Position numbers and translations under genes: made by a program. Shown here piece after piece: positions 30,670 through 62,905 of a stretch of DNA of 64,000 bases; the stretch's first letter is position 1; the number at the start of each line of letters is the position of its first letter. The stretch comes from Candidatus Dormiibacterota bacterium (GTDB lineage: Bacteria > Chloroflexota > Dormibacteria > CF-121): positions 1,082 through 65,081 of the forward strand of contig DAIPYJ010000007.1 in assembly GCA_036782775.1 (NCBI GenBank). The letters are read 5' to 3'. The notes below the pieces were generated by a model. It was not told the DNA's origin. It did no database searches and saw nothing but the letters and a program-made list of their open reading frames with translations.

Positions 30670-30686
30670 GCTATCCGTCCACGCCA

Positions 30687-41753: not shown

Positions 41754-41789
41754 TGTATATCGGCCGTACATCACGGATATATCGGCCGT
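41754..41789. promoter_or_regulatory. candidate GntR operator / divergent promoter region
   Basis: Direct repeats ATATCGGCCGT at 41757-41767 and 41779-41789, 22 nt apart. The first is embedded in TGTA-N9-TACA. The region has AT-rich TATAT boxes. Confidence 0.35.
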
Positions 41790-41866
41790 TCCGAACGCTA
41801 GCACGAGGTCGAAGAGTGGTCAAGGACTTTTGTGCGAAAACCGAGGCAGCGTGCTATGAAAGACGA

Positions 41867-44858: not shown

Positions 44859-47375
44859 ATGGCCAGCCTGCCCTCGCAGGCGCGAGTCGTCGTCATCGGC
44901 GCCGGGATCGTCGGCAACAGCATGGCCTATCACCTGGCGCGCCTCGGCTGGAAGGACCTCGTGCTGATCGACAAGGGCCGCATGCCGAACCCGGGCGGAT
45001 CCACCGGCCATGCCTCGAACTTCATCTTCCTGACCGACCACTCAAAGGAGATGACGCTGTTCACGCTCGACAGCGTCAACCAGTACAAGGAGCTCGGGGT
45101 CTTTACCAGGAGCGGCGGCATCGAGGTCGCCCGCACCGCCGAGCGCGTGGACGAGCTGAAGCGCCGGATGGCGTCCAGCAAGGCCTGGGGGATCGACGCC
45201 TCGCTGGTGACGCCCGCCGAAGTCAAAGAATTGGTTCCCTACATCAACGAGGACATCATCCTTGGCGGCTTCTATACCGAAGGCATCGGCACCGTCGACT
45301 CCTTGCGCGGCGGCACCATCATGCGCGAGCGCGCCGAGCAGATGGGGGCGCTGACCGTGATGCCGCAGACCGAAGTCACCGGCATCACGGTGCAGAACGG
45401 TCGCGTGACAGGCGTGCAGACGGACAAGGGCGAAATTTCGGCCGAGTATGTCGTCATCTCCTGCGGCATCTGGAGTCCGCGGTTGGCGCGGATGGCGGGG
45501 GCATCGATCCCGCTCAGCCCGGCGGTTCATCAGATGATCAGCGTCGGCCCGGTGCCTCTCTTCGCCGATACCGTCGGCGAGATCAAATACCCCATCGTCC
45601 GCGACATGGACACCAACGGCTACGAGCGCCAGCATGGCAGCGACATGGAAGTCGGCTCCTATGACCACCGACCGATCCTCTGGGATCCGGACGACATCCC
45701 GTCGATCGAGCAGTCGAAGCTGTCGCCCACCGAACTGCCCTTCACCAAGGAAGACTTTGACGAATCGCTCGAGCACGCGCTCGAGCTGATGCCCGACATC
45801 CTGGGCGATCCGAATGTTGGCATCCGTCACTCGATCAACGGTCTCCTGTCGCTTACGCCTGACGGCTTTCCCCTGCTGGGCGAAACCGCGGAGGTCAAGG
45901 GCCTCTGGTCGGTAGCGGCGATCTGGATCAAGGAAGCGCCTGGGATCGCGCGCTGCGTCGCCGAATGGATGACGAGCGGCGTGTCCGAGATCGACCCATC
46001 AGGGTCCGATGTTGCGCGCTTTTACGAGCACCAGAAGACGAAGGTCCATGTCAACGGCCGCACCGCCGAAGGCTTCAACAAGACCTACGGCATCGTCCAT
46101 CCACGCGAGCAGTGGGAATCGAATCGTCGGGTTCGGCTCAGCCCCTTCTACGAACGGGAGAAAGCCCTCGGAGCGTTCTTCTTCGAGACCGCCGGCTGGG
46201 AACGGCCGCACTGGTACGAATCGAACAAGAAGCTCCTCGACGAGTACGGCGATCGTGTCATGCCCCGCCGTTACGAGTGGGACGCGCGCTGGTGGTCCCC
46301 GATCATCAACGCCGAGCATCTCGCGATGCGAGACCGGGTCGCGATGGTCGACCTGTCCGCCTTCGCCGTCTTCGACGTCGCCGGCACCTGCGCGCTGGAG
46401 ACGATGCAAAATCTGTGCGTCGTCCAGATGAATGTCCCGGTTGGACGGGTCGTCTATACGTCGCTGCTCAATCCCGCGGCCGGCATCAAGGCCGACCTGA
46501 CCGTGATGCGGCTTGGGATCAATCACTTCCGGGTTGTGACCGGCGGCGCCGACGGCCCGCGGGACAAGAAGTGGTTTCAGGACCACCTGCCGGACGATGG
46601 CGCCGTGCAGCTGACCGACCTGACCAACAGCTGGGCGACGATCGGCGTCTGGGGCCCGCGTGCGCGTGACGTGATCTCGTCGATTACCGACGCCGACGTC
46701 TCGAACGACGGGTTTCCTTTCGGCACCTGTCGCACCATCGACCTTGGCCCGGTGCGGGTGCTCGCCTCGCGTATCTCGTATGTCGGAGAGCTCGGCTGGG
46801 AGATCTACGTGCCCTTCGAACAGGGCGCCCGCGTGTGGGATTCGATCTGGGAGACCGGCCAGCCGCACGGGATCGTTCCCGCCGGCATCGGCGTCTATGG
46901 AACGACCGGGCGAATCGAAAAGTGCTATCGCGCCTACGGATTCGAGCTGGAGCAGGAATTCAACCTGGTCGAGACCGGTCTGGCTCGGCCGCTGGTGAAG
47001 CCGCAGGACTTCATCGGGAAAGATGCCTATCTCAAGCAGCGCGCCGAACCGGCAGCCGCGATTCTGTCTACGCTGACGGTCGACGACAACATCTCGCGCT
47101 CCGGATTCAAGCGCTACATGCAGGGACGGGAACCAGTCCTGGGCCGCGATGGCCAGCGGCTGGTCGACAGGCACGGCCGCGGCTCCTATGTGACGAGCGC
47201 GGGCTCGGGACCGTCGGTCGGAAAGACCATCCTCATGAGCTTCTTGCCCCCGGAGCAGGCGAAAGTCGGCAACAAACTCTGTGTCGAGTATTTCGGCGAC
47301 CAGTATCCGGTGACCGTTGCCGTCGCCGGCCCGACGCCCCTATTCGATCCCCAGAACACCCGCGTCCGAAGTTGA
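44859..47375 (+). CDS. dimethylglycine/sarcosine dehydrogenase-family enzyme (FAD DAO domain plus folate-binding GcvT domain)
   Basis: 838 aa. N-terminal VVVIGAGIVGNSMAYHLA, then a C-terminal aminomethyltransferase folate-binding domain. Confidence 0.8.
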   Translation: MASLPSQARVVVIGAGIVGNSMAYHLARLGWKDLVLIDKGRMPNPGGSTGHASNFIFLTDHSKEMTLFTLDSVNQYKELGVFTRSGGIEVARTAERVDELKRRMASSKAWGIDASLVTPAEVKELVPYINEDIILGGFYTEGIGTVDSLRGGTIMRERAEQMGALTVMPQTEVTGITVQNGRVTGVQTDKGEISAEYVVISCGIWSPRLARMAGASIPLSPAVHQMISVGPVPLFADTVGEIKYPIVRDMDTNGYERQHGSDMEVGSYDHRPILWDPDDIPSIEQSKLSPTELPFTKEDFDESLEHALELMPDILGDPNVGIRHSINGLLSLTPDGFPLLGETAEVKGLWSVAAIWIKEAPGIARCVAEWMTSGVSEIDPSGSDVARFYEHQKTKVHVNGRTAEGFNKTYGIVHPREQWESNRRVRLSPFYEREKALGAFFFETAGWERPHWYESNKKLLDEYGDRVMPRRYEWDARWWSPIINAEHLAMRDRVAMVDLSAFAVFDVAGTCALETMQNLCVVQMNVPVGRVVYTSLLNPAAGIKADLTVMRLGINHFRVVTGGADGPRDKKWFQDHLPDDGAVQLTDLTNSWATIGVWGPRARDVISSITDADVSNDGFPFGTCRTIDLGPVRVLASRISYVGELGWEIYVPFEQGARVWDSIWETGQPHGIVPAGIGVYGTTGRIEKCYRAYGFELEQEFNLVETGLARPLVKPQDFIGKDAYLKQRAEPAAAILSTLTVDDNISRSGFKRYMQGREPVLGRDGQRLVDRHGRGSYVTSAGSGPSVGKTILMSFLPPEQAKVGNKLCVEYFGDQYPVTVAVAGPTPLFDPQNTRVRS

Positions 47376-47388
47376 GCCAACTCACTTT

Positions 47389-47414
47389 TCCCTCCCCCCG
47401 CATGCGGGGGGAGG
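47389..47414. repeat. perfect 26-nt palindrome CCCTCCCCCCGCATGCGGGGGGAGGG between the DMGDH and etfB genes
   Basis: Visible directly in the sequence. It belongs to the same family as the element at 15231-15257. Confidence 0.8.
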
Positions 47415-47430
47415 GTCAGGGTGGGGGGCT

Positions 47431-48204
47431 ATGAATATCCTCGTCTGCGTCAAGCGGGTTCCCGCCACCGCCGGCCACATTGCCCTCACGGCAGATGCGC
47501 AGGACATCGACACGCGCTACCTGGGCTTCACGATCTCCCCGCATGAGGAATGCGCGGTTGAAGAAGCGGTTCGGCTGATCGAGAAACACGGCGGCAGCAG
47601 CACGGTGTTGACGCTGGGCCCCGAAGTTGCGATCGATCAGCTACGCGACGCGATGGCGTTGGGCATCGACCGAGCGATCCTGCTGCAAACCGATGGGCGC
47701 GAATGGGATCCGATCGCAACCGCCGACGCGATCATGGAGTCGATTCGGACGGATCAGGCCGCCGGCATGAGCTACGACTTGATCATGTTCGGCAATGAGT
47801 CGGCGGACAGCGCCGGCTACCAGATCGGCGTGCGCGTTGCCGAGGCCCTTGATCTTCCCTGTGTGACGGGCATCAAGGCGCTTCAGGTCAACGACTCAAC
47901 CCTCGAGGTGCGCAGGCAGACGGAATCGGGCTGGGAGCGAGCTGGACTTTCGTTGCCAGCTGTCCTCACGGTAAAGGAGGGGCTGAATCTGCCGCGTTAT
48001 CCCTCGTTGCCGGGACGCCTGAAGGCGAAAAAGAAAGACATCGAACGCCGGACTCCGCAGTGGAAGGACGGTGGCCTGGAAAAAGTGCGGCTCAAGCTGC
48101 CTGTTCAGGCCAGCCACACAGTCGAAATGCTCGGCAAGACAGGCGAGGTTGGGGTTGAACTGATTGAACTGTTCCAGCGGCTCCAGCTGTTGGAGCGGCG
48201 ATGA
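47431..48204 (+). CDS. etfB: electron transfer flavoprotein beta subunit
   Basis: MNILVCVKRVP... is the EtfB N-terminus. Its stop overlaps the etfA start. Confidence 0.85.
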   Translation: MNILVCVKRVPATAGHIALTADAQDIDTRYLGFTISPHEECAVEEAVRLIEKHGGSSTVLTLGPEVAIDQLRDAMALGIDRAILLQTDGREWDPIATADAIMESIRTDQAAGMSYDLIMFGNESADSAGYQIGVRVAEALDLPCVTGIKALQVNDSTLEVRRQTESGWERAGLSLPAVLTVKEGLNLPRYPSLPGRLKAKKKDIERRTPQWKDGGLEKVRLKLPVQASHTVEMLGKTGEVGVELIELFQRLQLLERR

Positions 48205-49184
48205 TCCTCGCCTTCCTGGAGCACGTCAGCGGTGCGCCAACCGCCCTCTCTTTAGAGGTGCTGACGATGGGCCGACGACTCGCAGAGAGTATGGAGACCG
48301 GGCTCGAGGCGGTCGTGATCGGCGCCGGCGGGAGGTCGGCGGCCGGACTCCTCAGCTCCTACGGAGTGAGCTCCCTGCATGTGGCGGAAAATGCTGAGCT
48401 CGCTGACTACGCTCCCACCGCCTGGGCTCAGGCACTCGTGGAATTAGTTGAGGAAACCGCACCCCGGATCGTCATCGGGACGGCCAGCGACCGGGGCAGC
48501 GAGGTCATGGCCCACCTCGGAGCGCGCCTTCAGCTGGCGCTCGCGGCCAATTGCACCGAGATCACGCCCGGAGATCCAATGCTGGTAACCCGGCAGCGCT
48601 GGGGTGGGAGTCTGCTGGAAGAGGCGCGATTGACCGGCGAAGTCAAGCTCGTGACGCTCGCCCCTCACGCGCTGGTGGCCGAGGCATCGGCCAAACGAAC
48701 GGAGGTGGTTGCGCGTCCGTGGACCGCGGTCATCCAGGAGAAAGACTTGCGGGTGCGGCTCGTGCCAGAGGTCGAGATCGATACCGGAAAGGTTTCCCTG
48801 GCGCAGGCGCGCGTCGTGGTCGGCGGTGGCCGCGGCGTTGGCAGTGCGGAAGGATTTGCCGCGCTCGAAGAGCTCGCCGGCTATCTCGGCGGCGCGGTCG
48901 GGTGCTCGCGTGCCGTCACGAGCCTCGGATGGCGACCGCATAGCGACCAGGTGGGACAGACCGGCACACGCATCGCGCCGGATCTCTACATCGCGGCCGG
49001 CATCAGCGGCGCCATTCAGCATATGGTGGGCTGCCGCGCGGCCAAGCACATCCTCGCCATCAATACTGACGCGAACGCGCCGATCGTGGCACAGGCGGAC
49101 TACGCCGTGATCGGCGACGTGCACAAGGTGCTCGCCTCGGTCAACGAGGAGATCCGCAAGCTGAAAGCGACTCCAGTCGGCTAG
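48201..49184 (+). CDS. etfA: electron transfer flavoprotein alpha subunit
   Basis: EtfA FAD-binding C-terminal domain (...PDLYIAAGISGAIQH...). Confidence 0.85.
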   Translation: MILAFLEHVSGAPTALSLEVLTMGRRLAESMETGLEAVVIGAGGRSAAGLLSSYGVSSLHVAENAELADYAPTAWAQALVELVEETAPRIVIGTASDRGSEVMAHLGARLQLALAANCTEITPGDPMLVTRQRWGGSLLEEARLTGEVKLVTLAPHALVAEASAKRTEVVARPWTAVIQEKDLRVRLVPEVEIDTGKVSLAQARVVVGGGRGVGSAEGFAALEELAGYLGGAVGCSRAVTSLGWRPHSDQVGQTGTRIAPDLYIAAGISGAIQHMVGCRAAKHILAINTDANAPIVAQADYAVIGDVHKVLASVNEEIRKLKATPVG

Positions 49185-50978: not shown

Positions 50979-51108
50979 CGCCTGATCTCCGCTGCCGAAG
51001 GAACATCCGCCGTGCCTGACTTCCCCGAGAACCAGCTCTCCTAACGCCTCCCCCGACGAGCTGACCGGTCTTGCGGGCTGAGAAATCGTGCGCTAGACTT
51101 GTTGTGCC

Positions 51109-51912
51109 ATGAGCACCAGTTTTGCTATGCGCAACAAGGTGCAATCACTGGACCGGGCCCTGGAGATCTTGAAGCTGCTCGGCAGCGAGCCCGAAATGCG
51201 GGTGACCGATCTCGCGCGGCGTCTGGAGGTCCACAAATCGACCGTTTTCCGGCTGCTGGCCACCCTTCAGGAGCATGGGTTGGTCGAGCAGAACCCTTCA
51301 ACCGAGCGCTATCGGCTTGGCTACGGACTGGTCCGGCTCGCCGGGTCTGTGGTTGCGGAACTGGATCTGGCGCGCGCCTCTCGCCCGGTGCTCGAAGAGC
51401 TCGCCGCCCGCACCGGGGAAACGGTGAACCTTGCGATTTTGCAGGGCGATCAGGTCATCAACATCGAACAGATCGCCGCGCCGAACCTGGTGGTCAACGT
51501 CAACTGGGTCGGGAAACAGACGCCGCTGCATGCCACCTCGAACGGGAAAGTTCTGCTCGCGCACCTCGGCGCGGAGGAGCGCCGCCGTTTATTGGGCCGG
51601 TCGCTGCCTCGCCTCACGCCGCGGACGATCACCGATCCCAGGGTGCTCGAGAAGCAGCTGGCGCGCGTGCTCGATGACGGCTATGCCTTCACCCTCGAAG
51701 AGCTCGAACTGGGCTTGAATGCGGTCGCCGCTCCGGTGTTTGCGCCCGACGGCCGGGTGCTGGCGGCGGTGAGCGTCGCGGGCCCCTCCTACCGGGTCAC
51801 GCCACACCGGCTCACCGAGCTGGGAGAAACGACGAAAGAGGCAGGCGAGGCGATCTCGCGTCGACTCGGGTACATCCCACGCGGGGAATCCCCGCGAACC
51901 CTGACAGTCTGA
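51109..51912 (+). CDS. IclR-family transcriptional regulator
   Basis: N-terminal HTH (LDRALEILKLLGSEPEMRVTDLARRLEVHKSTVFRLLATL) with a C-terminal IclR effector domain. Confidence 0.8.
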   Translation: MSTSFAMRNKVQSLDRALEILKLLGSEPEMRVTDLARRLEVHKSTVFRLLATLQEHGLVEQNPSTERYRLGYGLVRLAGSVVAELDLARASRPVLEELAARTGETVNLAILQGDQVINIEQIAAPNLVVNVNWVGKQTPLHATSNGKVLLAHLGAEERRRLLGRSLPRLTPRTITDPRVLEKQLARVLDDGYAFTLEELELGLNAVAAPVFAPDGRVLAAVSVAGPSYRVTPHRLTELGETTKEAGEAISRRLGYIPRGESPRTLTV

Positions 51913-51928
51913 AAGCAGGAGGAGGAGC

Positions 51929-52645
51929 ATGAGTCGCGAGGAGGAGATTCGGCAGGAGCTGTTCGATCACACGCTGAACGGTCATGCGCCCGAGGTCAAG
52001 GCGCTGACGCAGGAAGCCTTGCAGCTGGGGATGGATCCGATGGACATCCTCTTCAAGGCGCTGATCCCATCGTTGGAAGAGGTCGGACGCCGTTTCGAGA
52101 AGGGCGACTTCTTCGTTCCCGAGATGCTGATCGCCGCGCGGGCGATGCAGGGCGCGCTGGTCATCCTGCGACCCCTGATCGCGGAAACCGGTGCCAAGCC
52201 GATCGGAAAGATCGTGATCGGGACGGTCAAGGGTGACATCCACGACATCGGCAAGAACCTGGTGATCATCATGCTCGAGGGCGCCGGTTTCGAAGTCGTC
52301 GACCTCGGCGTCAACTGCCCGCCCGAGAAATTCGTCGAGGCCGTGCGCGCCAACGAGCCCCACATCGTTGGCTTCTCCGCCTTCCTCACCACGACCATGC
52401 CGATGTTCAAGGTCAACATCCAGGCGCTCGAGAAAGCCGGACTCAGGGACAAAGTTGTCGTCATGGTCGGCGGCGCCCCGGTCACCGAGGAATACGCCAA
52501 GCTGGCGGGGGCGGATCACTATTCGCCGGATGCTTCGATCGCCACCCGGACCGCGAAACAGATCGTGGGCGCGGCGCAGGCCGCCGAAAATGCGGCCTTG
52601 ACCCAGGCGGTCGAGCTCATCGATAAGACGCTGCGGAAGGGCTAA
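51929..52645 (+). CDS. cobalamin-binding corrinoid protein of a methyltransferase system (MtgC/MtbC-like)
   Basis: B12-binding cap helix domain, then a Rossmann domain with the DxHxxG motif (GDIHDIGKNLV). Confidence 0.75.
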   Translation: MSREEEIRQELFDHTLNGHAPEVKALTQEALQLGMDPMDILFKALIPSLEEVGRRFEKGDFFVPEMLIAARAMQGALVILRPLIAETGAKPIGKIVIGTVKGDIHDIGKNLVIIMLEGAGFEVVDLGVNCPPEKFVEAVRANEPHIVGFSAFLTTTMPMFKVNIQALEKAGLRDKVVVMVGGAPVTEEYAKLAGADHYSPDASIATRTAKQIVGAAQAAENAALTQAVELIDKTLRKG

Positions 52646-52648
52646 GCC

Positions 52649-53023
52649 GTGAAGCTGGCCGAGCGCCTCGTGCTCGCCGTCGAGAAGCCGCTCAAGGAGG
52701 CGGTCTGGGACTGCCGCATGTGCGGCCAATGCATTCTGCATTCCACCGGGCTCAGCTGTCCGATGCGCTGTCCCAAGAACCTGCGCAACGGTCCGTGCGG
52801 CGGCGTCCGAGCAGACGGGAACTGCGAAGTTTTTCCTGACAAGCGTTGCGTCTGGGTCGAGGCCTGGGAGGGCTCTCGAAAGATGCCGCTCTGGCGCGAC
52901 CACATCCAGCATCTGCAGAAGCCCGTCGACTGGCAGCTGCAGGGAACGTCGTCCTGGATCAACCTGGTCAGCGGGCGCGACGCCGGGGCGCCGATGGGAT
53001 GGGACCCTCATGCGGGCCACTAG
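52649..53023 (+). CDS. metV: MetV-like small zinc-ribbon protein (MTHFR C-terminal-like domain)
   Basis: CRMCGQCIL...CPMRCPKNLRNGPCGG is a Cys-rich motif characteristic of MetV/PF12225. It overlaps the metF start. Confidence 0.55.
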   Translation: MKLAERLVLAVEKPLKEAVWDCRMCGQCILHSTGLSCPMRCPKNLRNGPCGGVRADGNCEVFPDKRCVWVEAWEGSRKMPLWRDHIQHLQKPVDWQLQGTSSWINLVSGRDAGAPMGWDPHAGH

Positions 53024-53984
53024 CCGCCTCGCCGATTTGCTGCATGACGGTCAGTTCGTCGTCACGGCCGAACTCACCTCCAGCGACAGTGCCGATCCCG
53101 AGGTGGTTGCCCGCAACGGCGAGATGCTGCGCGGCGTCGTCGACGCCATCAACTGCACCGACAACACTGGCGCCCATGTCCACCTCTCGGCGATCGCCGC
53201 CGCTCACCTGCTGGTGGAGCGCGGCATCGAACCGATCATGCAGGTGACAGTCCGCGATCGGAATCGCCTCGCGCTGCAGGCAGACCTGTTGGGTGCGGCC
53301 GCCCTCGGTGTTCGCAACATCGTCGTGATGAGCGGGGACGATGTGACCGCCGGCGACCATCCCGATGCCCGGCGGATCTACGACATCGACTCAATGCAGT
53401 TGATCGAGGTCGCAGCCGGCATGCGCGACCGCGCCGTCTATCTGAGCGGTCGCAAGCTTGGCCAGCCGCCGGCATTCTTCATCGGCGCCGTCGAGAACCC
53501 ATTTGCGCCGCCGCTCGAATTCCGTCCGTTGCGGTTGCAGAAAAAGGTCCGGGCTGGAGCGCAGTTCATCCAGACGCAGCTGGTCTTTGACGTGCCCATC
53601 TTCACCCGCTTCATGCGGATGGTCGACGACCTCGGCCTGCTCGACCAGGTCTTCATCATCCCGTCGATTGGGATCCCGCGTTCCGCTCGTGGGGCGCGCT
53701 TCATGAAGGAGAAGGTCCCGGGGTTACATGTGCCTGATGCCGTAATTGACCGGATGGAGAGGACGCCGCCAGCGCGGCAGGCGGAGGAAGGGATCGCGAT
53801 TGCCGTCGAGCTGGTCAGCGAGATTCGGCAGATCCGCGGCATCGCGGGGGTGCATCTGATCGGCATCAAATGGGAGGAAGGCGTCGCTCGGGTCGCCGAG
53901 GCCGCCGGCCTCCTGCCACGTCCAACCCATGAACCGCTTCCTTTTCCCTCCCCCGCTCGCGGCGGCGGACAGGGAAGGGGCTAA
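53010..53984 (+). CDS. metF: 5,10-methylenetetrahydrofolate reductase
   Basis: Shows the MTHFR TIM-barrel pattern (...NCTDNTGAHVH..., FIQTQLVFD). The 3' end runs through a CCCTCCCC/GGGAAGGGG-like low-complexity element. Confidence 0.75.
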   Translation: MRATSRLADLLHDGQFVVTAELTSSDSADPEVVARNGEMLRGVVDAINCTDNTGAHVHLSAIAAAHLLVERGIEPIMQVTVRDRNRLALQADLLGAAALGVRNIVVMSGDDVTAGDHPDARRIYDIDSMQLIEVAAGMRDRAVYLSGRKLGQPPAFFIGAVENPFAPPLEFRPLRLQKKVRAGAQFIQTQLVFDVPIFTRFMRMVDDLGLLDQVFIIPSIGIPRSARGARFMKEKVPGLHVPDAVIDRMERTPPARQAEEGIAIAVELVSEIRQIRGIAGVHLIGIKWEEGVARVAEAAGLLPRPTHEPLPFPSPARGGGQGRG

Positions 53985-54907
53985 TGGAAACGACGCTCCG
54001 CTCCCGCTCGAAGGAGGTTGTGATCTCGATCGATCGGCCCTTCGTGATGATCGGTGAGCGAATCAACCCAACCGGCCGCAAGGTGCTCGCCGCCGAAATG
54101 AAGCTGGGCCGGATGGATCGGGTCAAGGCTGATGCGATTGCGCAGGTCGAAGCCGGCGCGCAGATGCTGGATGTCAACGCGGGTGTGCCCGGCATCGACG
54201 AGCCGGCGCTGCTGGTCGCGGCGATTCGCGCCGTGGGTGAGGTGACCGATGTGCCGCTCTGCATCGACTCATCCGTGATCGAGGCGCTGGAGGCTGCCCT
54301 CGCCGTCTACGAGGGCAAGGCGCTGGTGAACTCGGTGACGGCCGAAGGCGAGCGAATGGACCGCATCCTGCCCCTGGTGAAGAAATACGGCGCGGCGGTC
54401 ATCGGCATGAGCAACGACGAGACAGGCATCACCATGGTTCCGCAGGAGCGGGTCGAGATCGCGCGTCGCATCATCGAGCGCGCCAAGTATTACGGCATTC
54501 CCCAGGAAGACGTCGTCATCGATCCGATCGCGATGACCGTCGCCGCGGATCCGCAGGCCGGTCTGATCACGCTGGAGACCATGCGCCTCATCAAGGAACA
54601 GCTCGGGAACAACATGACCTGCGGTGCCTCGAACGTCTCGTTCGGGCTGCCGGAGCGGCATCTGCTGAACGCCGCCTTCTTCCCGGTGGCGATGCACGCC
54701 GGCTTGAGCTGCGCCATCACCAATCCGTTAGTGCCCGAGGTGCGAAAGGCGGTGCTGGCTTCCGACCTCCTGCTGGGCCACGACGAGTACGCCATGCGGT
54801 GGATTTCCGATTTCCGCACCGAGCAGAAGAAAAGAGCCTCCCTCCCTGACCCTCCTCCCGCTACGCAGGGAGAGGGAATTGGAAGGCTGGCGGTCAAGCC
54901 GGGATGA
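53984..54907 (+). CDS. pterin-binding methyltransferase (methylcorrinoid:tetrahydrofolate methyltransferase, MtgA/AcsE-like)
   Basis: DHPS-like pterin-binding barrel (INPTGRK..., NSVTAEGERM, CGASNVSFGLPER). Confidence 0.7.
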   Translation: METTLRSRSKEVVISIDRPFVMIGERINPTGRKVLAAEMKLGRMDRVKADAIAQVEAGAQMLDVNAGVPGIDEPALLVAAIRAVGEVTDVPLCIDSSVIEALEAALAVYEGKALVNSVTAEGERMDRILPLVKKYGAAVIGMSNDETGITMVPQERVEIARRIIERAKYYGIPQEDVVIDPIAMTVAADPQAGLITLETMRLIKEQLGNNMTCGASNVSFGLPERHLLNAAFFPVAMHAGLSCAITNPLVPEVRKAVLASDLLLGHDEYAMRWISDFRTEQKKRASLPDPPPATQGEGIGRLAVKPG

Positions 54908-56730
54908 TCCAGAAGAAGCTGGAGGTCGTCTACCAGCCCTTTGATAAATCGACGCGAGTCCCACCCGGGACGACGCTGTTCTCGGCGGCGCATTGGATCG
55001 GGCTGCCGATCGATTCGACCTGCGGCGGCCGCGGCACCTGCGGCAAGTGCAAGGTGCAGATCGTCGACGGAACGGCCGAGATCACAGCCGCCGATCGCAA
55101 ACAGCTGCGACAGAGCGAGCTGGACGGAAGCTGGCGGCTCTCCTGCCAGGCGAAGGTTTACCAGGACACGACGGTCAAGGTTCCCGAGCTGCTGCGGGTG
55201 CCCAAAGCCGCGACCATGGGCGTCAACCGGCTCGTTCTGCTCGACCCGAATGTCCGCAAGGTGTATCTCGAGCTGAGCGAGCCGACGCTCGAGGACCAGC
55301 GCAGCGACGTCGAGCGGCTGCAGGACGCATTGACGGCAGAAGGCTTCGACATGAAGGCGGACCTTGATGTGCTCCGCACGCTGCCCGCTCTGTTGCGCGC
55401 CGCAGACTTTCGGGTCACGGCCGTTCTTGGCGGCGATCAGCTGATCGCGGTCGAAGCGGGCGATACCCGCGACGAGAGCTACGGCGTCGCCTTTGACCTG
55501 GGCACCACGACCGTCGTTGGGACGCTGATGAACCTCCGAACCGGGATGGCCGAGGCCGTGGCCTCGACCTTGAATGGGCAGGCGGCCTTCGGGGCGGACG
55601 TGATCTCGCGGATCAGCCACGGGATGCAGGGCGAGGAGGCACGGGTCGAACTACGGGCGGCCGTCCTGCGCACGATCAATGACCTGCTGGCCGATCTCTA
55701 CGAGCGTGCCGGCGTCGATCGCGAGCGCGTCTACGAGACGGTCGTGGTCGGGAACGCGACGATGCTGCACCTCCTGCTCGGCATCGACGCCACGCCCATC
55801 TCGATGATGCCGTTCGCGCCGACCTTTCGCGAGCCGCTTTATCTGCCCGCTCGCGAAGTCGGACTCGACATCCACGCCAATGGTTATGTGCAGACGTTGC
55901 CCATCATCGGTGCCTACGTGGGCGCCGACATCGTCGCCGGCGTGGTCGCGACTGGACTCGCGCGCGAGGACAAACTGCGGGTCTTCGTCGATGTCGGAAC
56001 GAATGGCGAGATCGTCCTCGGCTCGAACAAGCGCGTCCTCTGCACCGCGGCCCCCGCCGGACCCGCCTTCGAGGGCAGCCAGATCAAATGTGGCATGCGA
56101 GCCACCGACGGCGCGATCGAGGGCGTTACCCTGACCGATCGTGTCGAGCTGCAGGTGATCGGCGGCGATGTCACGCCCCGAGGCATCTGTGGGTCCGGCT
56201 TGGTCGATGCCGTCGCCCAACTCCTGGTTGCTGGTCTGCTCGATGCCAGCGGCAAGCTCAAGAGCAGGGAAGAGGTGCCCGAGCATCCCCTGTCGGACCG
56301 ACTCATCAGCGTCGAGGGCGTTCGCGCGTTTCTCCTTGCCGAGAACGTCTACCTCAGCCAGCGCGACGTCCGCGAGCTGCAGTTCGCGAAAGGATCGATC
56401 GCAACCGGCATCAAAGTATTGATGGACGTCCTGGGCGTCGCCGCCGCCGACCTCGACGAGGTTCTGCTCGGTGGGTCGTTCGGCTCGTACCTCAACCCGG
56501 AGAGCGCCAAGATCATCGGCCTCGTGCCGCCGGTCCATGTCGACAAGATCCTGTCCGTCGGGAATACGGCCGGCGAGGGAGCCAAGATGTCGTTGCTTTC
56601 ATTCCGCGAGCGACAGGTTGCCTTTGAGCTGCCGCAGAAGATCGAGTACGTCGAGCTCTCCGGCCGCTCCGATTTCAACGACTCCTTCGTCTCGGTCCTT
56701 CGCTTTCCAGATCTGGAGGATGTCGCATGA
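54904..56730 (+). CDS. RamA/RACo-type ATP-dependent reductive activase of corrinoid proteins (2Fe-2S ferredoxin plus ASKHA domain)
   Basis: N-terminal plant-type ferredoxin motif CGGRGTCGKCKV...C. A long DUF4445/ASKHA ATPase domain follows (FDLGTTTVVG..., VDVGTNGEIVLG). Confidence 0.75.
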   Translation: MIQKKLEVVYQPFDKSTRVPPGTTLFSAAHWIGLPIDSTCGGRGTCGKCKVQIVDGTAEITAADRKQLRQSELDGSWRLSCQAKVYQDTTVKVPELLRVPKAATMGVNRLVLLDPNVRKVYLELSEPTLEDQRSDVERLQDALTAEGFDMKADLDVLRTLPALLRAADFRVTAVLGGDQLIAVEAGDTRDESYGVAFDLGTTTVVGTLMNLRTGMAEAVASTLNGQAAFGADVISRISHGMQGEEARVELRAAVLRTINDLLADLYERAGVDRERVYETVVVGNATMLHLLLGIDATPISMMPFAPTFREPLYLPAREVGLDIHANGYVQTLPIIGAYVGADIVAGVVATGLAREDKLRVFVDVGTNGEIVLGSNKRVLCTAAPAGPAFEGSQIKCGMRATDGAIEGVTLTDRVELQVIGGDVTPRGICGSGLVDAVAQLLVAGLLDASGKLKSREEVPEHPLSDRLISVEGVRAFLLAENVYLSQRDVRELQFAKGSIATGIKVLMDVLGVAAADLDEVLLGGSFGSYLNPESAKIIGLVPPVHVDKILSVGNTAGEGAKMSLLSFRERQVAFELPQKIEYVELSGRSDFNDSFVSVLRFPDLEDVA

Positions 56731-57320
56731 AAAAAGACGTCGCCCTCCTGATTTGCGGCGCGCTGGGCAAGGAGGTGAAGACGATCGTCGACCAGCACGG
56801 CTGGGACGTCGATATCTATGGCGTACCGGCGATGCACCACTTCTATCCGAAGAAGATCGTCGAGGCTGTCGACCGGCGGCTGAGCGACTTGTCCAGGCGC
56901 TATGAGCGCGTGGTCGTCGTCTACGGCGACTGCGGCACGGCCGGTAGTCTCGAGCCGGTTCTCGACCGGCATCGAGCCGTCCGCTTACCGGGCCCCCACT
57001 GCTACGAGATGTTCGCCGGCGCGGCCGAATTCGAGCGGCTCTCGGAGGAACAGCCCGCGACTTTCTTTCTCACCGACTGGCTGGTCCGAAACTTCGAGCG
57101 CGCGATCGTACGCGGGCTCGGGCTCGATCGCTATCCAGAGCTCAAGTCCGCCTACTTCCAGAACTACACCGACTGCGTCTACCTGGCCCAGTTCCCCATG
57201 GATACCCTTCGGGAAAAGGCTGTCGAGATCGCGCAATATCTCGAGCTGCCGCTGGAAATCAGGAGCGTCGGCTTTGGCGAACTCGAAACGCGGCTGGCGG
57301 CCCTGGTGGAGGCGGCGTGA
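56727..57320 (+). CDS. DUF1638-family protein (commonly linked to corrinoid methyltransferase clusters)
   Basis: 197 aa. Family assignment is from overall resemblance. It is coupled at both ends. Confidence 0.45.
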   Translation: MKKDVALLICGALGKEVKTIVDQHGWDVDIYGVPAMHHFYPKKIVEAVDRRLSDLSRRYERVVVVYGDCGTAGSLEPVLDRHRAVRLPGPHCYEMFAGAAEFERLSEEQPATFFLTDWLVRNFERAIVRGLGLDRYPELKSAYFQNYTDCVYLAQFPMDTLREKAVEIAQYLELPLEIRSVGFGELETRLAALVEAA

Positions 57321-57613
57321 TGGCGACCTATCAGGTCATGTTCTGGAAGCACATCCCCGCGCAGATCAAAGCCTGGGACGAGCAGGGAGAGGTCAAGCGC
57401 ATGCTGCCTGATCGATTTCAGGCCGCCATCGATGCCTACGCCATGAAGGATGGCTCGACGGATATGGACAGCTACCTCGAGGCGTGGCGATGGAGCGAGC
57501 CGCAGCAGCGAGCTGGATCGGCAGAGGAGGTGGCCGGCGTGCTGGTCAACGAGCTCGATCGCGACAACCCACGGTCGAAGCTGATGAATCCATCGGCGGA
57601 GGAGGGACGATGA
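57317..57613 (+). CDS. small hypothetical protein (98 aa) coupled between the DUF1638 gene and fhs
   Basis: ORF with overlapping stop/start at both ends and no recognised domain. Confidence 0.35.
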   Translation: MMATYQVMFWKHIPAQIKAWDEQGEVKRMLPDRFQAAIDAYAMKDGSTDMDSYLEAWRWSEPQQRAGSAEEVAGVLVNELDRDNPRSKLMNPSAEEGR

Positions 57614-59286
57614 GCCAGGCAGCGCAAAAGTTCGACCTCGTGCGACCCCAGCGCCTGAGGCCGGTGATGGAGGTCGGCAAGGAATTCGGCTTGCTCGAGT
57701 CTGAGCTCATTTCCTACGGCCCCTACAAGGCGAAGATCAGCCTCGACGTCCTGAAGCGGCTGGAAAACCGACCCGATGGGCGACTCGTCGTCGTCACGGC
57801 GATCACACCGACGCGTGCTGGCGAAGGCAAGACGACGAGCGCCATCGGCCTGACCGAGGGCCTTGGCCGGATCGGGGCCAATGTCGCGCTCTGCCTGAGG
57901 CAGCCGTCGACCGGACCGCTGTTCGGGATCAAGGGCGGTGGTACCGGCGGCGGGATGGCCCAGATCGTGCCGATGGAAGAGATCAACCTGCACTTCACCG
58001 GCGACATTCACGCCGTCGAGGCGGCGCACAACCTCTTGGCCGCCGTTATCGATTCGGCAATTTTCCATGGGCAGCTCGAGATCGGACCGAGCTTTATCAC
58101 GTGGCCGCGCACGCTTGATGTCAACGATCGCGCGCTGCGCCATATCGTCACCGGCCTCGGCGGCGATGAGCATGGCGTGCCCCGCGAATCGAGCTTCATC
58201 ATCGCGGCCGCCTCGGAGATCATGGCGATCCTCGCGCTGGCCAGCGATCTGGAAGACTTGCGCCGGCGCGTCGGCCGGATCATCGTTGGCCAACGGAAGG
58301 ACGGAAGCTTCGTGACAGCGGAGGACCTGCGGGTTGCCGGAGCGATGACGGTGCTGCTGAGAGATGCGCTGCTGCCGAACATCGTGCAGACGATGGAGGG
58401 TCAGCCCACCCTGGTTCACGCCGGTCCATTCGGCAACATCGCCCACGGCAACAACTCGCTGCTGGCCGACCAGATCGCCCTCAAGCTGGCCGACATTGTC
58501 GTCACCGAGGCCGGGTTCGGCGCGGATCTCGGACTGGAGAAGTTCGCGCACATTGTTGCCCGTTATGGCCACCTCAAGCCAGCCGCAGCGTTAGTGGTCG
58601 CGACCGTTCGGGCGCTGAAATCCCACGGCGGAGTGCCGCTCGCGAAACTTGGCAGCGAAGACGTCGACGCCCTGCGGCGCGGCGCCGAAAACCTTGCTGC
58701 GCACATCGACATCGTGAAGGCCTTCGGAATGCGTAGCGTCGTCGCCATCAATCGCTTTCCCAGTGATACGGATCGCGAGCTGGATGAGCTGGTCCAACTC
58801 GCACTGCAGTTCGGCGCCGACGCAGCCGTCGTCAACGATGGTTTTGGCCGAGGTGGCGATGGTGCGGTCGAGTTGGCGCATGCGGTCGAGCAGGTCACCA
58901 GCAAGGGCAGCAACTTCGCGCCGCTCTATCCGGAAGGCACGCCGATCCGCGAGCAGATCCTTACCCTGGCCCAGCGGGTCTATGGCGCGGCGGACGTCGA
59001 GTTCCTGCCCGAATGTCAGAAGCGCATCGACTGGCTAACGCAGCAGGGGATGGGCGCGCTGCCGGTCTGCATGTCGAAGACGCACCTCTCGCTTTCCCAC
59101 GATCCCTCCTTGAAGGGGCGGCCGCGTGGCTTCACGATGCCGATCCGGAATGTCTACCCTTCAGCTGGCGCGGGCTTCATCGTGGCGCTCGCGGGCGACA
59201 TCCAGCTGATGCCTGGACTGGGCAAGGAACCTGCCTATACGCGAATCGACATCGACGCCGATGGCACGATACGCGGGCTGACCTAA
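57610..59286 (+). CDS. fhs: formate--tetrahydrofolate ligase
   Basis: ITPTRAGEGKTTSAIGL P-loop with FTHFS family-wide conservation. The ATG at 57610 overlaps the upstream stop (ATGA); the longer track ORF is rejected. Confidence 0.85.
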   Translation: MSQAAQKFDLVRPQRLRPVMEVGKEFGLLESELISYGPYKAKISLDVLKRLENRPDGRLVVVTAITPTRAGEGKTTSAIGLTEGLGRIGANVALCLRQPSTGPLFGIKGGGTGGGMAQIVPMEEINLHFTGDIHAVEAAHNLLAAVIDSAIFHGQLEIGPSFITWPRTLDVNDRALRHIVTGLGGDEHGVPRESSFIIAAASEIMAILALASDLEDLRRRVGRIIVGQRKDGSFVTAEDLRVAGAMTVLLRDALLPNIVQTMEGQPTLVHAGPFGNIAHGNNSLLADQIALKLADIVVTEAGFGADLGLEKFAHIVARYGHLKPAAALVVATVRALKSHGGVPLAKLGSEDVDALRRGAENLAAHIDIVKAFGMRSVVAINRFPSDTDRELDELVQLALQFGADAAVVNDGFGRGGDGAVELAHAVEQVTSKGSNFAPLYPEGTPIREQILTLAQRVYGAADVEFLPECQKRIDWLTQQGMGALPVCMSKTHLSLSHDPSLKGRPRGFTMPIRNVYPSAGAGFIVALAGDIQLMPGLGKEPAYTRIDIDADGTIRGLT

Positions 59287-59293: not shown

Positions 59294-59752
59294 GTGCCGC
59301 AGCAAAGCGCCGGCCTGATCCTGCATCGCGTTCGAGACGGACGGCAGGAGGTGTTGCTCGTGCACCCGGGCGGGCCGTTCTGGCAGAAGCGGGACGACGG
59401 CGCGTGGTCGATTCCAAAAGGTGAGCTCGGCGAAAATGAGGGCGGCATCGATGTGGCAAAACGAGAATTCGAGGAAGAGCTCGGGGTCAAGCCGCCGGAG
59501 GGCGAATTTACGACCCTGGGTTCGGTGCGGCAGGCGGGCGGAAAAGTGGTAAATGCGTGGGCACTCCAGGGAGATCTCGACGTGACGCGAATTCATAGCA
59601 ACGTCTTTGAGATCGAATGGCCGCCTCGGTCGCGGAGAATGCGACAGTTTCCGGAAGTGGACCGCGCCGGATGGTTCGCGCTCGACGCGGCACGCCGCAA
59701 GCTCGTTGCTGCGCAGGCCGAGTTCATCGATCGCCTCGAGGCCTTGGCGTGA
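59294..59752 (+). CDS. NUDIX hydrolase
   Basis: Nudix box GELGENEGGIDVAKREFEEELGV. Confidence 0.8.
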   Translation: MPQQSAGLILHRVRDGRQEVLLVHPGGPFWQKRDDGAWSIPKGELGENEGGIDVAKREFEEELGVKPPEGEFTTLGSVRQAGGKVVNAWALQGDLDVTRIHSNVFEIEWPPRSRRMRQFPEVDRAGWFALDAARRKLVAAQAEFIDRLEALA

Positions 59753-61482
59753 CGTTCGCGGAGCTCAGCACCTACCTCGATCGGCTCGAGGCGACGTCGA
59801 AGCGCAATGAGCTCGTGAAAATCTTGTCCGAGCTGTACACAAAGAGCTCGGCCGAGGAAATCCAGCCGCTGAGCTATCTGATCCAGGGCCGTCTCGTTCC
59901 CTTCTTCGAGCCGCTCGAAATCGGCCTCGGCGAGAAGCTGGTCGAGGCGGCGATCGCCGAGGCATACGGCCGGCCGAGGGAAGAAGTGGCCAAGCAGTTC
60001 GGTCGCATCGGCGACCTCGGCTTGGTGGCCGCCGAGCTTGCCGGGTCCGGATCGGGATCCGAGGTGTCGCTGCTGGAGGTCCATGCGCGGCTCACTGAGA
60101 TCGCCGAAGCGGCTGGGGCGGGATCGGTCGAGAAGAAGCGTGGCGGCTTCGCTGCGCTGCTCAAACACGTCGACGCCGTGTCTGCCAAGCACCTGGTCCG
60201 AATGGCGCTCGGCAAGTTGCGGCTCGGGATCGGCGAGCCGACCGTGCTCGATGCGCTCTCCTTCGCGAAGAAAGGCGATCGGAGCTTGAGGCCCATCCTC
60301 GAATCGGCCTACAACCGCACCTCCGACCTTGGCATGATCGCGCGCACTTTCTGGGAAAGCGGCGAGGAGGCAGTCACCGCGCTCAAGGTGACCGTCGGCC
60401 GCCCGATTCGGAGCCAGCTTGCCGAACGGCTGCCCAATCCCGAAGCCGTGATCAAGCGGCTGGGGCTGGTCGCCGTGCAGCCGAAGTACGACGGCATCCG
60501 GGTCCAGATCCACAAGCAGGGCGACGAGGTCCGCATCTTCTCCCGAAACCTCGAGGACTTCACCTTGATGTTTGCGGAGCTGACGGCCGCCGCCCGCACC
60601 TTGAAGGAGGAGACGCTCATCCTGGACGGAGAAGCGATCGCCTACAGCAAAGAAGCCGAAGAATACATGCCGTTCCAGCAGACCGCCAGCCGCCGTCGCG
60701 TGCATGGCATCGAAGAGGCGACAAAAGAATTGCCGCTGGTCGCCTTTATCTTCGACATTCTCTATCGCGATGGAAAGGATCTCACCGAGCTGCCCTACGA
60801 GCGGCGCCTCGCCCTTGTCGACGAAGTCATCAAGGGATCGACCGTTTTCCTACCGGCACCGATCATCAAGACCGATTCGGTCGAGGTCCTGACCAAAACG
60901 CTGCTCGACAATATCAGCCAGGGCCTCGAGGGTGTGGTCGTCAAGCGGCCGGATTCGCCCTACCAGGCCGGCGCTCGCAACTTCAACTGGGTCAAGCTGA
61001 AGCGTCACACCAGTGGCGAGCTCAACGATACCGTCGACCTCGTCCTGCTGGGCTACTACTTCGGGAAAGGCAAACGAGCGGCCTTCGGCGCCGGCGCGCT
61101 ACTGGCCGGTGTCTACGACGCGGAGAAAGATCGGTTCGAGACCATCACCAAGCTCGGCACCGGTTTATCGGATGCCGAGTGGCGAGAAGTCCATCAGCGG
61201 GCCGACAAGTTGCAGGTCGATCACAAGCCGGCGCGAGTGGAAGCGATCCTTCAGCCTGATGTCTGGCTTCAGCCCGAGGTTGTGGTCGAAGTCCTCGCGG
61301 ATGAGATCACGCCGAGCCCGCGTCACACCGCAGGCATGGAAGGTGATCAGCCGGGCTTTGCCCTTCGCTTCCCCCGGATCGTGTCGTTTCGAAACGCCGA
61401 CAAGCGGCCCGAAGATGCGACCACCGTCAAAGAAATCGCCGAACTATTTCGCCAGCAGCGAGAGAAAAAAGTCCCCGCCTAA
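59749..61482 (+). CDS. lig: ATP-dependent DNA ligase
   Basis: GTG start overlapping the NUDIX stop (GTGA). Motif I KYDGIR, plus an OB-fold C-terminus. Confidence 0.8.
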   Translation: MTFAELSTYLDRLEATSKRNELVKILSELYTKSSAEEIQPLSYLIQGRLVPFFEPLEIGLGEKLVEAAIAEAYGRPREEVAKQFGRIGDLGLVAAELAGSGSGSEVSLLEVHARLTEIAEAAGAGSVEKKRGGFAALLKHVDAVSAKHLVRMALGKLRLGIGEPTVLDALSFAKKGDRSLRPILESAYNRTSDLGMIARTFWESGEEAVTALKVTVGRPIRSQLAERLPNPEAVIKRLGLVAVQPKYDGIRVQIHKQGDEVRIFSRNLEDFTLMFAELTAAARTLKEETLILDGEAIAYSKEAEEYMPFQQTASRRRVHGIEEATKELPLVAFIFDILYRDGKDLTELPYERRLALVDEVIKGSTVFLPAPIIKTDSVEVLTKTLLDNISQGLEGVVVKRPDSPYQAGARNFNWVKLKRHTSGELNDTVDLVLLGYYFGKGKRAAFGAGALLAGVYDAEKDRFETITKLGTGLSDAEWREVHQRADKLQVDHKPARVEAILQPDVWLQPEVVVEVLADEITPSPRHTAGMEGDQPGFALRFPRIVSFRNADKRPEDATTVKEIAELFRQQREKKVPA

Positions 61483-61765: not shown

Positions 61766-62905
61766 TCAGCCGATGATCCGCGCGGAGCCGAAGCCGGCGG
61801 AGAGCAGGTGATCCGCCTCGAAGCGGCGGGGGTCGAATTGGCGTAATCCTGGATCGATGTCTTTACCCAGGACGAGGGAGGCGGTGTGCCGACCAAGCGC
61901 GGGGCCGAGCTTGAACCCGTGACCGCTGGTGCCCGCGTCGACGATCACGCCAGGTGCGATCTCGCCGATCACCGGCTGCCAGTCGGGGCTGACGTCGTAG
62001 ACACTCGCCCAACCGCCTCGGGCATCGGCCTGTGCCAGGGAGGGAAAGCGTTTGGTGATGCCCGATGCCATCCGACCGATCTCTTCGGGTGTGACCGATG
62101 CGCTAAAGGCATCCGGATCCGCTTGCGGCTCGCTGGTGAGGGGGCCCGCGAGAAACAGATCGCTGCCTTCGGGTTTCATGTAGTACCCCTCTGGGATGTC
62201 GGCAAGCGCGCAGGGAAGCGGCTTCGCTCTGTTCCAGCCGAAGGTCGCCACCCAGTGCCGCTCCACCGTGAGCGGCAGATCGACATTCAGCTGGCGCGCC
62301 AGGCTGCGCGTCCACGGGCCGGCGGCGATCAGGAGTCGTTCGCATTCGGTGCGGTCGCCGTCGCTCGTGACGATGATGGCACCGCCCCCGCCCCTTCGTT
62401 CAATCGCCGCCACGTTGGTGTGAAGCCGCGAACGTAGGCCCAGTTCCACCGCCCGCTGAAACAGGCCCTGCGTGGTGGCAACCGGGTCGGCATACCCGGC
62501 GTTGACTTCGAGGGCGGCGATCGAGATGCCTTCGGGATCCATTTCGCGATATGCCCGGCCGAGCGCAGACGGCTCGAACAGTTGGACCTCGGTGCCAACC
62601 TCGGCCAGCATGGCGGCCGTCTCGTGAACATGGCCCAGTTCCTCGGGTCCCATCAGGTAGAGGTCGCCGGTCTGGCGGAAGCCGGCGTCGCGTCCACCCG
62701 AGACCTCGGCGAAATTCGCGAACATCTGCAGGCTGTCGTGCGCGACTTCGGCGATGAAGCGATTGGTGTAAAACGCTCGGCAGATGGCGCTCGACCGCCC
62801 GGTCGGGCCGCTCGCCGGCCCACCGCGTTCGAAGAGCGTGGCGCTGACGCCCATCCCGGCCAGGTGGTAGCCGGCACTCACGCCGTGGATGCCGCCACCG
62901 ATGAT
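61766..62905 (-). CDS. FAD-dependent oxidoreductase, DAO family (sarcosine oxidase/glycine oxidase-like)
   Basis: N-terminal VGIIGGGIHGVSAGYHLA dinucleotide fold and C-terminal GTSGHGFK. The only in-frame start with an RBS is CTG at 62903-62905 (AAGGAGG then 6 nt); an in-frame TAA lies just upstream. Confidence 0.55.
   Translation of the reverse strand: MIGGGIHGVSAGYHLAGMGVSATLFERGGPASGPTGRSSAICRAFYTNRFIAEVAHDSLQMFANFAEVSGGRDAGFRQTGDLYLMGPEELGHVHETAAMLAEVGTEVQLFEPSALGRAYREMDPEGISIAALEVNAGYADPVATTQGLFQRAVELGLRSRLHTNVAAIERRGGGGAIIVTSDGDRTECERLLIAAGPWTRSLARQLNVDLPLTVERHWVATFGWNRAKPLPCALADIPEGYYMKPEGSDLFLAGPLTSEPQADPDAFSASVTPEEIGRMASGITKRFPSLAQADARGGWASVYDVSPDWQPVIGEIAPGVIVDAGTSGHGFKLGPALGRHTASLVLGKDIDPGLRQFDPRRFEADHLLSAGFGSARIIG

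Follow-up and report, generated by a model that had tools for sequence, protein, structure and literature searches.

The DNA analysed here (hereafter the window) is a stretch of 64,000 nucleotides (nt) of contig DAIPYJ010000007.1, from an uncultured member of the Dormibacterota. It carries on its plus strand a nine-gene operon (positions 51109-59286) for a corrinoid- and folate-dependent methyl-transfer module, and on its minus strand, some kilobases away, a gene set built around a methyltransferase of the MttB superfamily. The operon had been proposed in a preliminary description of this DNA. All of its open reading frames (ORFs) are present, run in the same direction and are joined by tight junctions (from 5' to 3', the first two are gaps, 16 and 3 nt long, and the other six are overlaps, 14, 1, 4, 4, 1 and 4 nt long). 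The family proposed for each component was borne out as well, since in a Pfam domain search every one scored above its gathering threshold, by which all Pfam assignments below were judged; NCBIfam models were judged by their own score cutoffs. The GC content of the window is 65%, and that at the third codon position of the nine module ORFs is coding-like (0.78-0.85). The genes of the operon are:

51109-51912, plus strand: regulator of the IclR family, opening the operon (IclR_C 162.6 bits, HTH_IclR 71.1 bits)
51929-52645, plus strand: corrinoid (cobalamin-binding) protein, MtgC-like (PF02607 71.2 bits, PF02310 98.7 bits)
52649-53023, plus strand: MetV-like, Cys-rich subunit of methylenetetrahydrofolate reductase (MTHFR), GTG start, 124 residues with 8 Cys (PF12225 90.9 bits)
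53010-53984, plus strand: methylenetetrahydrofolate reductase MetF, MetVF type (PF02219 111 bits)
53984-54907, plus strand: methyl-tetrahydrofolate (methyl-THF):corrinoid methyltransferase, MtgD/MtgA-like (Pterin_bind 97.4 bits)
54904-56730, plus strand: ATP-dependent corrinoid reductive activase of the RACo/AcsV type (Fer2, RACo_linker, Raco_middle and RACo_C_ter domains)
56727-57320, plus strand: DUF1638 protein (Pfam DUF1638)
57320-57613, plus strand: PF13769 ('Virulence_fact') protein of 97 residues, partner of the DUF1638 protein (Pfam PF13769)
57610-59286, plus strand: formate-tetrahydrofolate ligase Fhs, 558 residues (FTHFS 777 bits; NF010030 739.9 bits, cutoff 652)

Two gene models had to be revised. 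The small ORF between the DUF1638 and fhs genes, earlier listed as a 98-residue protein of no known family, has 97 residues (57320-57613) and belongs to PF13769, and the start of Fhs lies at 57610 and not at 57484, as given by the gene calls of two near-identical contigs of metagenome-assembled genomes (MAGs).

The methyl-transfer proteins are of the kinds that had been supposed, and neither of the two findings on them that the preliminary description would have taken as a refutation, a corrinoid protein without a functional B12-binding fold or a pterin-binding protein that is a dihydropteroate synthase, was borne out. In the corrinoid protein the cap and Rossmann B12 domains are both present, as is the motif DxHxxG of the base-off/His-on ligand (DIHDIG, residues 103-108). 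Its best NCBIfam matches are the MtgC/MtbC models, of anaerobe/archaeal type, but it falls below their cutoffs (NF047996, 194.8 bits against a cutoff of 370; NF047995, 155.3 against 310), in line with aerobic MtgC proteins being reported to form a clade of their own (PMC12478193). The pterin-binding protein is not a dihydropteroate synthase, as it scores 312.1 bits on PRK07535 (cutoff 259) and 28.5 bits on the dihydropteroate synthase model TIGR01496 (cutoff 162.6). MetF matches the MTHFR half of PRK08645, a MetF type fused with a homocysteine methyltransferase, with 193 bits, compared to 58.7 bits for the NAD(P)H-dependent MetF model TIGR00676; metV lies immediately upstream of metF, with which it shares the 14-nt overlap, and the two genes are arranged alike in Azoarcus and Paracoccus. 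The activase, finally, had been called RamA. It is indeed a reductive activase of the 2Fe-2S/ASKHA kind, and like RACo it consists of an N-terminal 2Fe-2S ferredoxin domain (cluster cysteines Cys40/46/49/81), a linker, a middle domain and an ASKHA ATPase, but it is of the RACo/AcsV type and not of the methanogen RamA type (TIGR04270, 124.2 bits, cutoff 500). RamA proteins carry C-terminal 4Fe-4S motifs, unlike the N-terminal 2Fe-2S domain found here. The best NCBIfam model is AcsV with 455 bits; as this is below the cutoff of 800, the protein is not the CODH/ACS-linked orthologue.

The minus-strand set consists of seven genes, the last of which encodes an uncharacterised protein of 245 residues. 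The other six are, in order of transcription:

41026-41823, minus strand: GntR/FCD regulator, start uncertain, heading the minus-strand operon (GntR and FCD domains)
40084-41016, minus strand: conserved protein of 310 residues, between the GntR and permease genes (weak metallophosphoesterase-like match)
38378-40009, minus strand: APC-superfamily permease, probable choline/betaine importer (AA_permease_2 67 bits)
37094-38311, minus strand: choline dehydrogenase of the GbsB (iron alcohol dehydrogenase) type (NF053866 CholDhdGbsBBac 577.6 bits, cutoff 550; Pfam domains of iron alcohol dehydrogenases)
35634-37088, minus strand: non-pyrrolysine methyltransferase of the MttB superfamily, MtgB-like (PF06253 662.7 bits)
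34145-35614, minus strand: aldehyde dehydrogenase, probably acting on betaine aldehyde (Aldedh 514 bits)

The MttB homologue, which lies where the preliminary description had placed it, is the only PF06253 gene within the window. Its ORF of 484 residues is uninterrupted, with no in-frame UAG, and residues 5-475 align to PDB entry 2QNE. With the MtgB of Desulfitobacterium hafniense (PDB 2QNE/9YCE) it shares 49% identity (486 bits), compared to 142 bits for a true trimethylamine MttB. In the D. hafniense enzyme glycine betaine is bound by Y97, F356, R312 and H348, and the replacement F356L raises the Km about 800-fold (Picking et al. 2026, PMC13080624). In the window protein, Y98, R313 and H349 correspond to the aromatic Y97 and to the carboxylate-binding R312 and H348, but F356, the second aromatic residue for cation-pi contact, is replaced by Ala357, with a Trp at position 353, four residues or one helical turn earlier. 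As this one residue departs from the pattern, the protein does not fully qualify for the MtgB group as defined by biochemistry. The surrounding sequence LHAAGWLE[S/G][A/G]L (region of residues 349-357) is common to PDB 4YYC and to all 32 module-linked homologues that we examined. Judged from its sequence and neighbours, the protein is most likely a glycine betaine:corrinoid methyltransferase, with betaine as the substrate that the context suggests.

The substrate might instead be another quaternary amine, such as proline betaine, a carnitine-type betaine or a choline derivative, the iron alcohol dehydrogenase and the aldehyde dehydrogenase then acting before or after the methyltransferase on a different amino-alcohol or aldehyde. 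The Phe-to-Ala exchange and the Trp at 353 would fit such a substrate; the retained Arg and His are less telling, being kept also in relatives with different acidic quaternary amines as substrates, and the specificity of MtgB proteins of the aerobic clade is presumptive. Neither the aldehyde dehydrogenase nor the permease has a specific family match: the former scores 372-389 bits on betaine-aldehyde dehydrogenase models, below their cutoffs, so that its substrate is suggested by context, and the latter finds no specific NCBIfam model and owes its presumed role to its position in the operon. Against this stand the two D. hafniense MtgB entries as best relatives in the PDB, the iron alcohol dehydrogenase that passes the cutoff for GbsB choline dehydrogenases, and the co-clustering, in three phyla, of the module with a dimethylglycine dehydrogenase (DMGDH)-type enzyme, for which betaine demethylation supplies the substrate. 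Moreover, W353 together with Ala or Gly at 357 occurs in every one of the 32 module-linked homologues, among them those of Proteobacteria that are encoded beside ProVWX-type betaine transporters and GlxA-family regulators. We therefore consider a different amine unlikely, though it is the strongest of the competitors to glycine betaine demethylation that are weighed in this text.

Between the MttB set and the module lie the genes of such a DMGDH-type enzyme and of an electron-transferring flavoprotein (ETF), in addition to unrelated genes:

44859-47375, plus strand: flavoenzyme of the DMGDH/sarcosine dehydrogenase type (DAO, FAO_M, GCV_T and GCV_T_C domains)
47431-48204, plus strand: EtfB
48201-49184, plus strand: EtfA (ETF and ETF_alpha domains over the EtfB/EtfA pair)

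The homologues of MtgB, MtgC, MtgD, MetF, the activase and DUF1638 and the genes for demethylation of dimethylglycine (DMG) and sarcosine are thus all found within 26 kb. Between the stop codon of the DMGDH gene (47375) and the start of etfB (47431) there is also a perfect, GC-rich palindrome of 26 nt, CCCTCCCCCCGCATGCGGGGGGAGGG (47390-47415), which may form an intercistronic stem-loop.

For comparison, one genome per species was scanned for relatives of the PF13769 protein and all window proteins were mapped onto the resulting 84 loci (L001 and L002 are contigs of the same species as the window, and L005-L011 its close Dormibacterota relatives). These close relatives have the module in the same order, IclR-MtgC-MetV-MetF-MtgD-RACo-DUF1638-PF13769-Fhs, and its conservation in other Dormibacterota MAGs shows that the arrangement is not due to chance. 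In L006-L008 the DMGDH-EtfBA genes lie directly 5' of the iclR gene. In L010 and L011 the genes for the permease, the 310-residue protein and GntR (63-65%, 90-91% and 79% identity, respectively) are adjacent to IclR-MtgC and divergent from it, so that the 9.3-kb spacer seen in the window is evidently variable. More distant Dormibacterota (L012-L037) have the genes MtgC-MtgD-RACo-DUF1638-PF13769 with a convergent MttB gene (75% identical protein) and an ABC transporter upstream, and altogether about 20 other Dormibacterota loci have MttB immediately beside the module. The two Dormibacterota architectures, one with MetV-MetF and Fhs and one shorter, belong to different lineages, and none of the sampled genomes has both.

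The same associations recur outside this phylum. Six loci of Actinomycetota (Gaiella, Thermoleophilia and others) have on one strand DMGDH-EtfBA-IclR-MtgC-DUF1638-PF13769-MtgD-RACo-MttB-GbsB, in some followed by the aldehyde dehydrogenase gene, and in Anaerolineales Fhs lies 3' of the module. A megablast of the operon against plasmids gave only short matches of 100-230 nt in the corrinoid gene, which led us to cassettes in Azoarcus and Paracoccus: on Azoarcus pAZKH the genes DMGDH-ETF-ProVW-PurU stand beside MtgC-DUF1638-'virulence factor'-MetV-MetF-MtgD-RACo-ProX, and in Paracoccus aminovorans MttB adjoins the same cassette. This linkage, recurring across four phyla, supports a functional connection between the MttB locus and the module.

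The regulation of the two loci was approached from the promoter of the operon. Phylogenetic footprinting proved more useful here than a consensus scan, since the numbers of sigma-70 promoter and terminator consensus matches in the 50-62 kb region were at or below shuffled expectation. In an alignment of seven Dormibacterota relatives, the pattern TTGC-N17-TAnAnT and the GTTGTGC that follows it are invariant and the remaining intergenic sequence is not conserved. The corresponding feature in the window is:

51071-51099, plus strand: promoter-like element (TTGCGG and TAGACT, 17 nt apart), the end of which lies 9 nt upstream of the iclR ATG

As the element ends so close to the start codon, iclR would be a leaderless or near-leaderless gene; the alignment suggests that the operon begins with iclR as a leaderless gene, the promoter function being predicted. 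The IclR protein has BhcR as its best NCBIfam match (209 bits, below the cutoff of 350), and of 80 related loci 28 have an iclR gene adjoining the module. Within 51071-51111 the stretch GTTGTGCCATGAGCAC contains an inverted repeat, GTGC-N5-GCAC, that spans the iclR start codon and is a candidate autoregulatory site. We rejected it as a shared operator for both loci, as it occurs in a single copy in the window, no more than expected by chance. An Rfam scan of the whole window detected neither a cobalamin riboswitch nor any other RNA family.

These regulatory data bear on whether the two loci belong together at all. It could be that they are independent and that the module serves other methyl donors through paralogues of MttB or other methyltransferases encoded elsewhere, its nearness to the MttB gene being coincidental. 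They have different regulators, GntR and IclR, with no shared operator found; about 9.3 kb lie between them, with partly unrelated genes (hydrolase, CheB, Crp, GNAT, ECH); and in Ruegeria up to seven MttB paralogues share one MtgC. Yet the two loci are repeatedly found adjacent or directly fused, in relatives as well as in other phyla, and the window has a single PF06253 gene, so that we hold independence to be very improbable. The preliminary description had spoken of an anaerobic-type module recruited into an aerobic betaine regulon: the link to betaine is upheld by synteny, but a common regulon is not demonstrated, no shared operator having been found.

The oxidation of methyl-THF, as opposed to its formation, is supported by the proteobacterial versions of the module, in which the irreversible deformylase PurU and FolD take the place of Fhs; in Azoarcus, in Rhodocyclaceae and in one alphaproteobacterial MAG, PurU and FolD genes accompany the module. 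This point also bears on an anabolic alternative, according to which the module acts mainly, or exclusively, as a split methionine synthase that depends on cobalamin, with a secondary link to MttB. Fhs would then activate formate, MetVF would reduce methylene-THF, the pterin enzyme would load the corrinoid protein and an MtgE encoded elsewhere would make methionine. Such a role has a precedent in the split enzyme of Phaeobacter and Ruegeria, where MtgC, MtgD, the RamA-like protein and DUF1638 are essential for methionine; MetF and Fhs are reversible, and the corrinoid and pterin proteins match segments of MetH. Against it speak the irreversible PurU and the ties that the module has, in four phyla, to MttB, GbsB, DMGDH-ETF and betaine transporters. 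Furthermore, a homocysteine methyltransferase gene (PF02574) is absent from the 64 kb of the window, and none adjoins the module in relatives, L021 among them. An exclusively or mainly anabolic module thus appears improbable, somewhat more so than a different amine substrate. The module could also have a dual role in demethylation and methionine synthesis, as in Ruegeria.

We consider it probable, at roughly 70%, that the operon and the MttB locus together make up one cobalamin-dependent pathway of quaternary-amine demethylation, split over two nearby loci. In this pathway, choline would be imported by the APC permease and oxidised to glycine betaine through the action of the GbsB-type and aldehyde dehydrogenases. 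The MtgB-like MttB protein would convert betaine to dimethylglycine by transfer of one methyl group to the Co(I) centre of the corrinoid protein, and the pterin-binding methyltransferase would pass this methyl group on to tetrahydrofolate. Fe-S type MetVF would then oxidise methyl-THF to methylene-THF, a FolD encoded elsewhere would take it to formyl-THF, and Fhs would release formate with the formation of ATP. The ETF-linked DMGDH-type enzyme would demethylate dimethylglycine further. Corrinoid oxidised to the Co(II) state would be returned to Co(I) by the RACo-type activase, using ATP and its 2Fe-2S cluster, while the DUF1638 and PF13769 proteins may assist in corrinoid maintenance. The IclR protein, transcribed from the conserved promoter, probably controls the operon. 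As a guess, the 310-residue protein of the MttB locus might release choline from a phosphoester.

Several points weigh against this interpretation. The pathway is read from genes alone, in an uncultured organism: the gene content, the families, the motifs and the conserved gene order are observed, and the substrates, the flux direction, the regulation and the parts played by DUF1638 and PF13769 are deduced. To the loss of the betaine-binding F356, the sub-cutoff scores of the aldehyde dehydrogenase and the separate regulators without a common operator, all described above, must be added that the preliminary description overstated the module when calling it complete: as it had itself noted, FolD is missing from the window, where tblastn found none with a query that gave positive-control matches in other loci, so that the oxidation route is incomplete as encoded there. 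PurU was likewise not found in the 64-kb window by tblastn. MetVF-type enzymes are known from strict anaerobes, where they work in the reductive direction (PMC8760232, PMC8515935), and here one would operate oxidatively in a presumed aerobe. The aerobic lifestyle of the host is itself presumed, on the grounds of its taxon and of the ETF-linked and DAO-type flavoenzymes of the window.

Of the known systems, the closest is that of the aerobic Ruegeria pomeroyi, in which MtgB/MtgC/MtgD, MetF2, a RamA-like protein and DUF1638 carry out betaine demethylation (Mausz et al., PNAS 2025, PMC12478193). There as here, the route would lead from a pfam06253 MtgB through MtgC and MtgD to methyl-THF, and through MetF2 into THF-linked one-carbon oxidation, with an activase, DUF1638 and nearby genes for dimethylglycine and sarcosine. 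The MtgB candidates, MetF2, RamA-like and DUF1638 proteins of Ruegeria are induced, and in many bacteria these genes form operons near DMG/sarcosine genes (PMC12478193). The window differs in that its genes form one tight operon that includes a MetV-like subunit, PF13769 and Fhs, in that choline would be oxidised by a GbsB-type iron alcohol dehydrogenase and not by BetA, and in having no MtgE nearby. None of Dormibacterota, Chloroflexota, MetV, PF13769 and Fhs is named in the main text of PMC12478193. The proteomics in its Dataset S1 shows induction on glycine betaine of the uncharacterised Ruegeria protein SPO1861, whose gene adjoins metF2 (SPO1862); SPO1861 is a candidate for a MetV-like subunit.

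Likewise, in Phaeobacter inhibens (Price et al. 2018, PMC5764234) a methionine synthase split into three parts has separate genes for the corrinoid protein, the pterin protein, a ferredoxin-DUF4445 activase resembling RACo and DUF1638, but the window lacks its PF02574 homocysteine methyltransferase subunit and offers a catabolic context (MttB, DMGDH, Fhs). With MtgB/MtgC/MtgA of D. hafniense (PMC13080624) the window shares a pyrrolysine-free TIM-barrel enzyme and its partners, a corrinoid protein and a methyl-THF methyltransferase; here, however, the host is a presumed aerobe, in which methyl-THF would be oxidised and not fed to acetogenesis or anaerobic respiration. The order of a PF12225 MetV directly before a PF02219 MetF is that of acetogens such as Clostridium ljungdahlii, whose MetVF is an iron-containing heterodimer with reduced ferredoxin as proposed donor (PMC8760232, PMC8515935); the MetV of the window is short by comparison (124 residues), its proposed direction is oxidative and its host presumably aerobic. 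Finally, as with GbsAB of Bacillus subtilis, a type III iron alcohol dehydrogenase (GbsB equivalog) and an aldehyde dehydrogenase are combined in one operon, although betaine would here be a catabolic intermediate beside its demethylase and not an osmoprotectant end product.

The concept, in which a module of anaerobic type works in aerobic betaine catabolism, was thus already published in 2025 (PMC12478193), and the same cassette is already annotated on the Azoarcus and Paracoccus plasmids. What is new here is small: the host lineage, the pairing of DUF1638 with PF13769, the Trp-for-Phe pocket of MtgB and the Fe-S type MetVF. In the literature searched we found no published mention of the PF13769 protein, of its pairing with DUF1638 or of the Trp-for-Phe pocket variant. 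If our interpretation is correct, cobalamin-dependent demethylation of betaine and choline would reach from marine Proteobacteria to the Dormibacterota, an abundant uncultured lineage of soils, and it appears also in soil Actinomycetota and in Anaerolineales. This would imply a demand for vitamin B12 and an energy source in methyl groups in oligotrophic soils. The operon also supplies candidate parts beyond the published models, the MetV Fe-S subunit and the DUF1638-PF13769 pair, which could guide reconstitution. Worth pursuing are this pair, the pocket variant and the electron acceptor of MetVF; they leave the concept of 2025 unchanged.

The PF13769 gene lies directly 3' of the DUF1638 gene in 60 of the 71 loci with enough upstream sequence, and the loci (L005-L084) span Dormibacterota, Anaerolineales, Actinomycetota and Alpha-, Beta- and Gammaproteobacteria. 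In DUF1638 the residues Cys10, Cys69, Cys92, His38 and His91 are invariant across phyla; the protein has no sequence match in the PDB, and a fold search gave only generic resemblances (flavodoxin-like, periplasmic-binding-protein-like). For the PF13769 protein a confident AF2 model was obtained, with no match among solved structures. In Phaeobacter, the DUF1638 and RamA-like proteins are genetically required (PMC5764234). We tentatively propose, as an idea that has the odds somewhat against it, that DUF1638 and PF13769 constitute an accessory unit of split corrinoid methyltransferases in oxygen-exposed bacteria, and that the Trp-for-Phe exchange in MtgB marks the aerobic clade. Possible roles of the pair are cobalamin loading, protection, or service as electron-relay partner of the RACo-type activase. 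A PF13769 subgroup of the Acidobacteriota type is present without the module.

Downstream of Fhs the following genes are found:

59294-61482, plus strand: NUDIX hydrolase and ATP-dependent DNA ligase (7-nt gap after Fhs, then a 4-nt overlap)
61766-62881, minus strand: DAO flavoprotein resembling monomeric sarcosine oxidase/N-methyltryptophan oxidase, downstream of the module

The NUDIX hydrolase and DNA ligase were rejected as members of the operon, for they are linked to it only in the same-species L001 and L002 and not in L005-L011. The DAO flavoprotein may provide the sarcosine step of the pathway; DAO-type genes lie 3' of Fhs also in L006-L008 and L011.

As to the organism, the closest named proteins come from soil MAGs labelled 'Candidatus Dormibacteraeota' and 'Chloroflexi bacterium', and two contigs of MAG GCA_036567485.1 carry an identical corrinoid protein and an identical MttB protein. 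The remainder of the window is in keeping with a soil bacterium of the Terrabacteria type. It holds an F420-type PPOX gene, a sortase gene (8919-9608) and genes for type IV pilus ATPase and platform proteins (5725-6909 and 21682-25928). Interleaved with the pilus and sortase genes is a dense set of cyclic-di-GMP genes (15277-17709, minus strand; 30624-32864, 17745-18755 and 26378-27232, plus strand), which encode two paralogous HD-GYP-GAF-GGDEF proteins, one REC-HD-GYP protein and one GGDEF protein.

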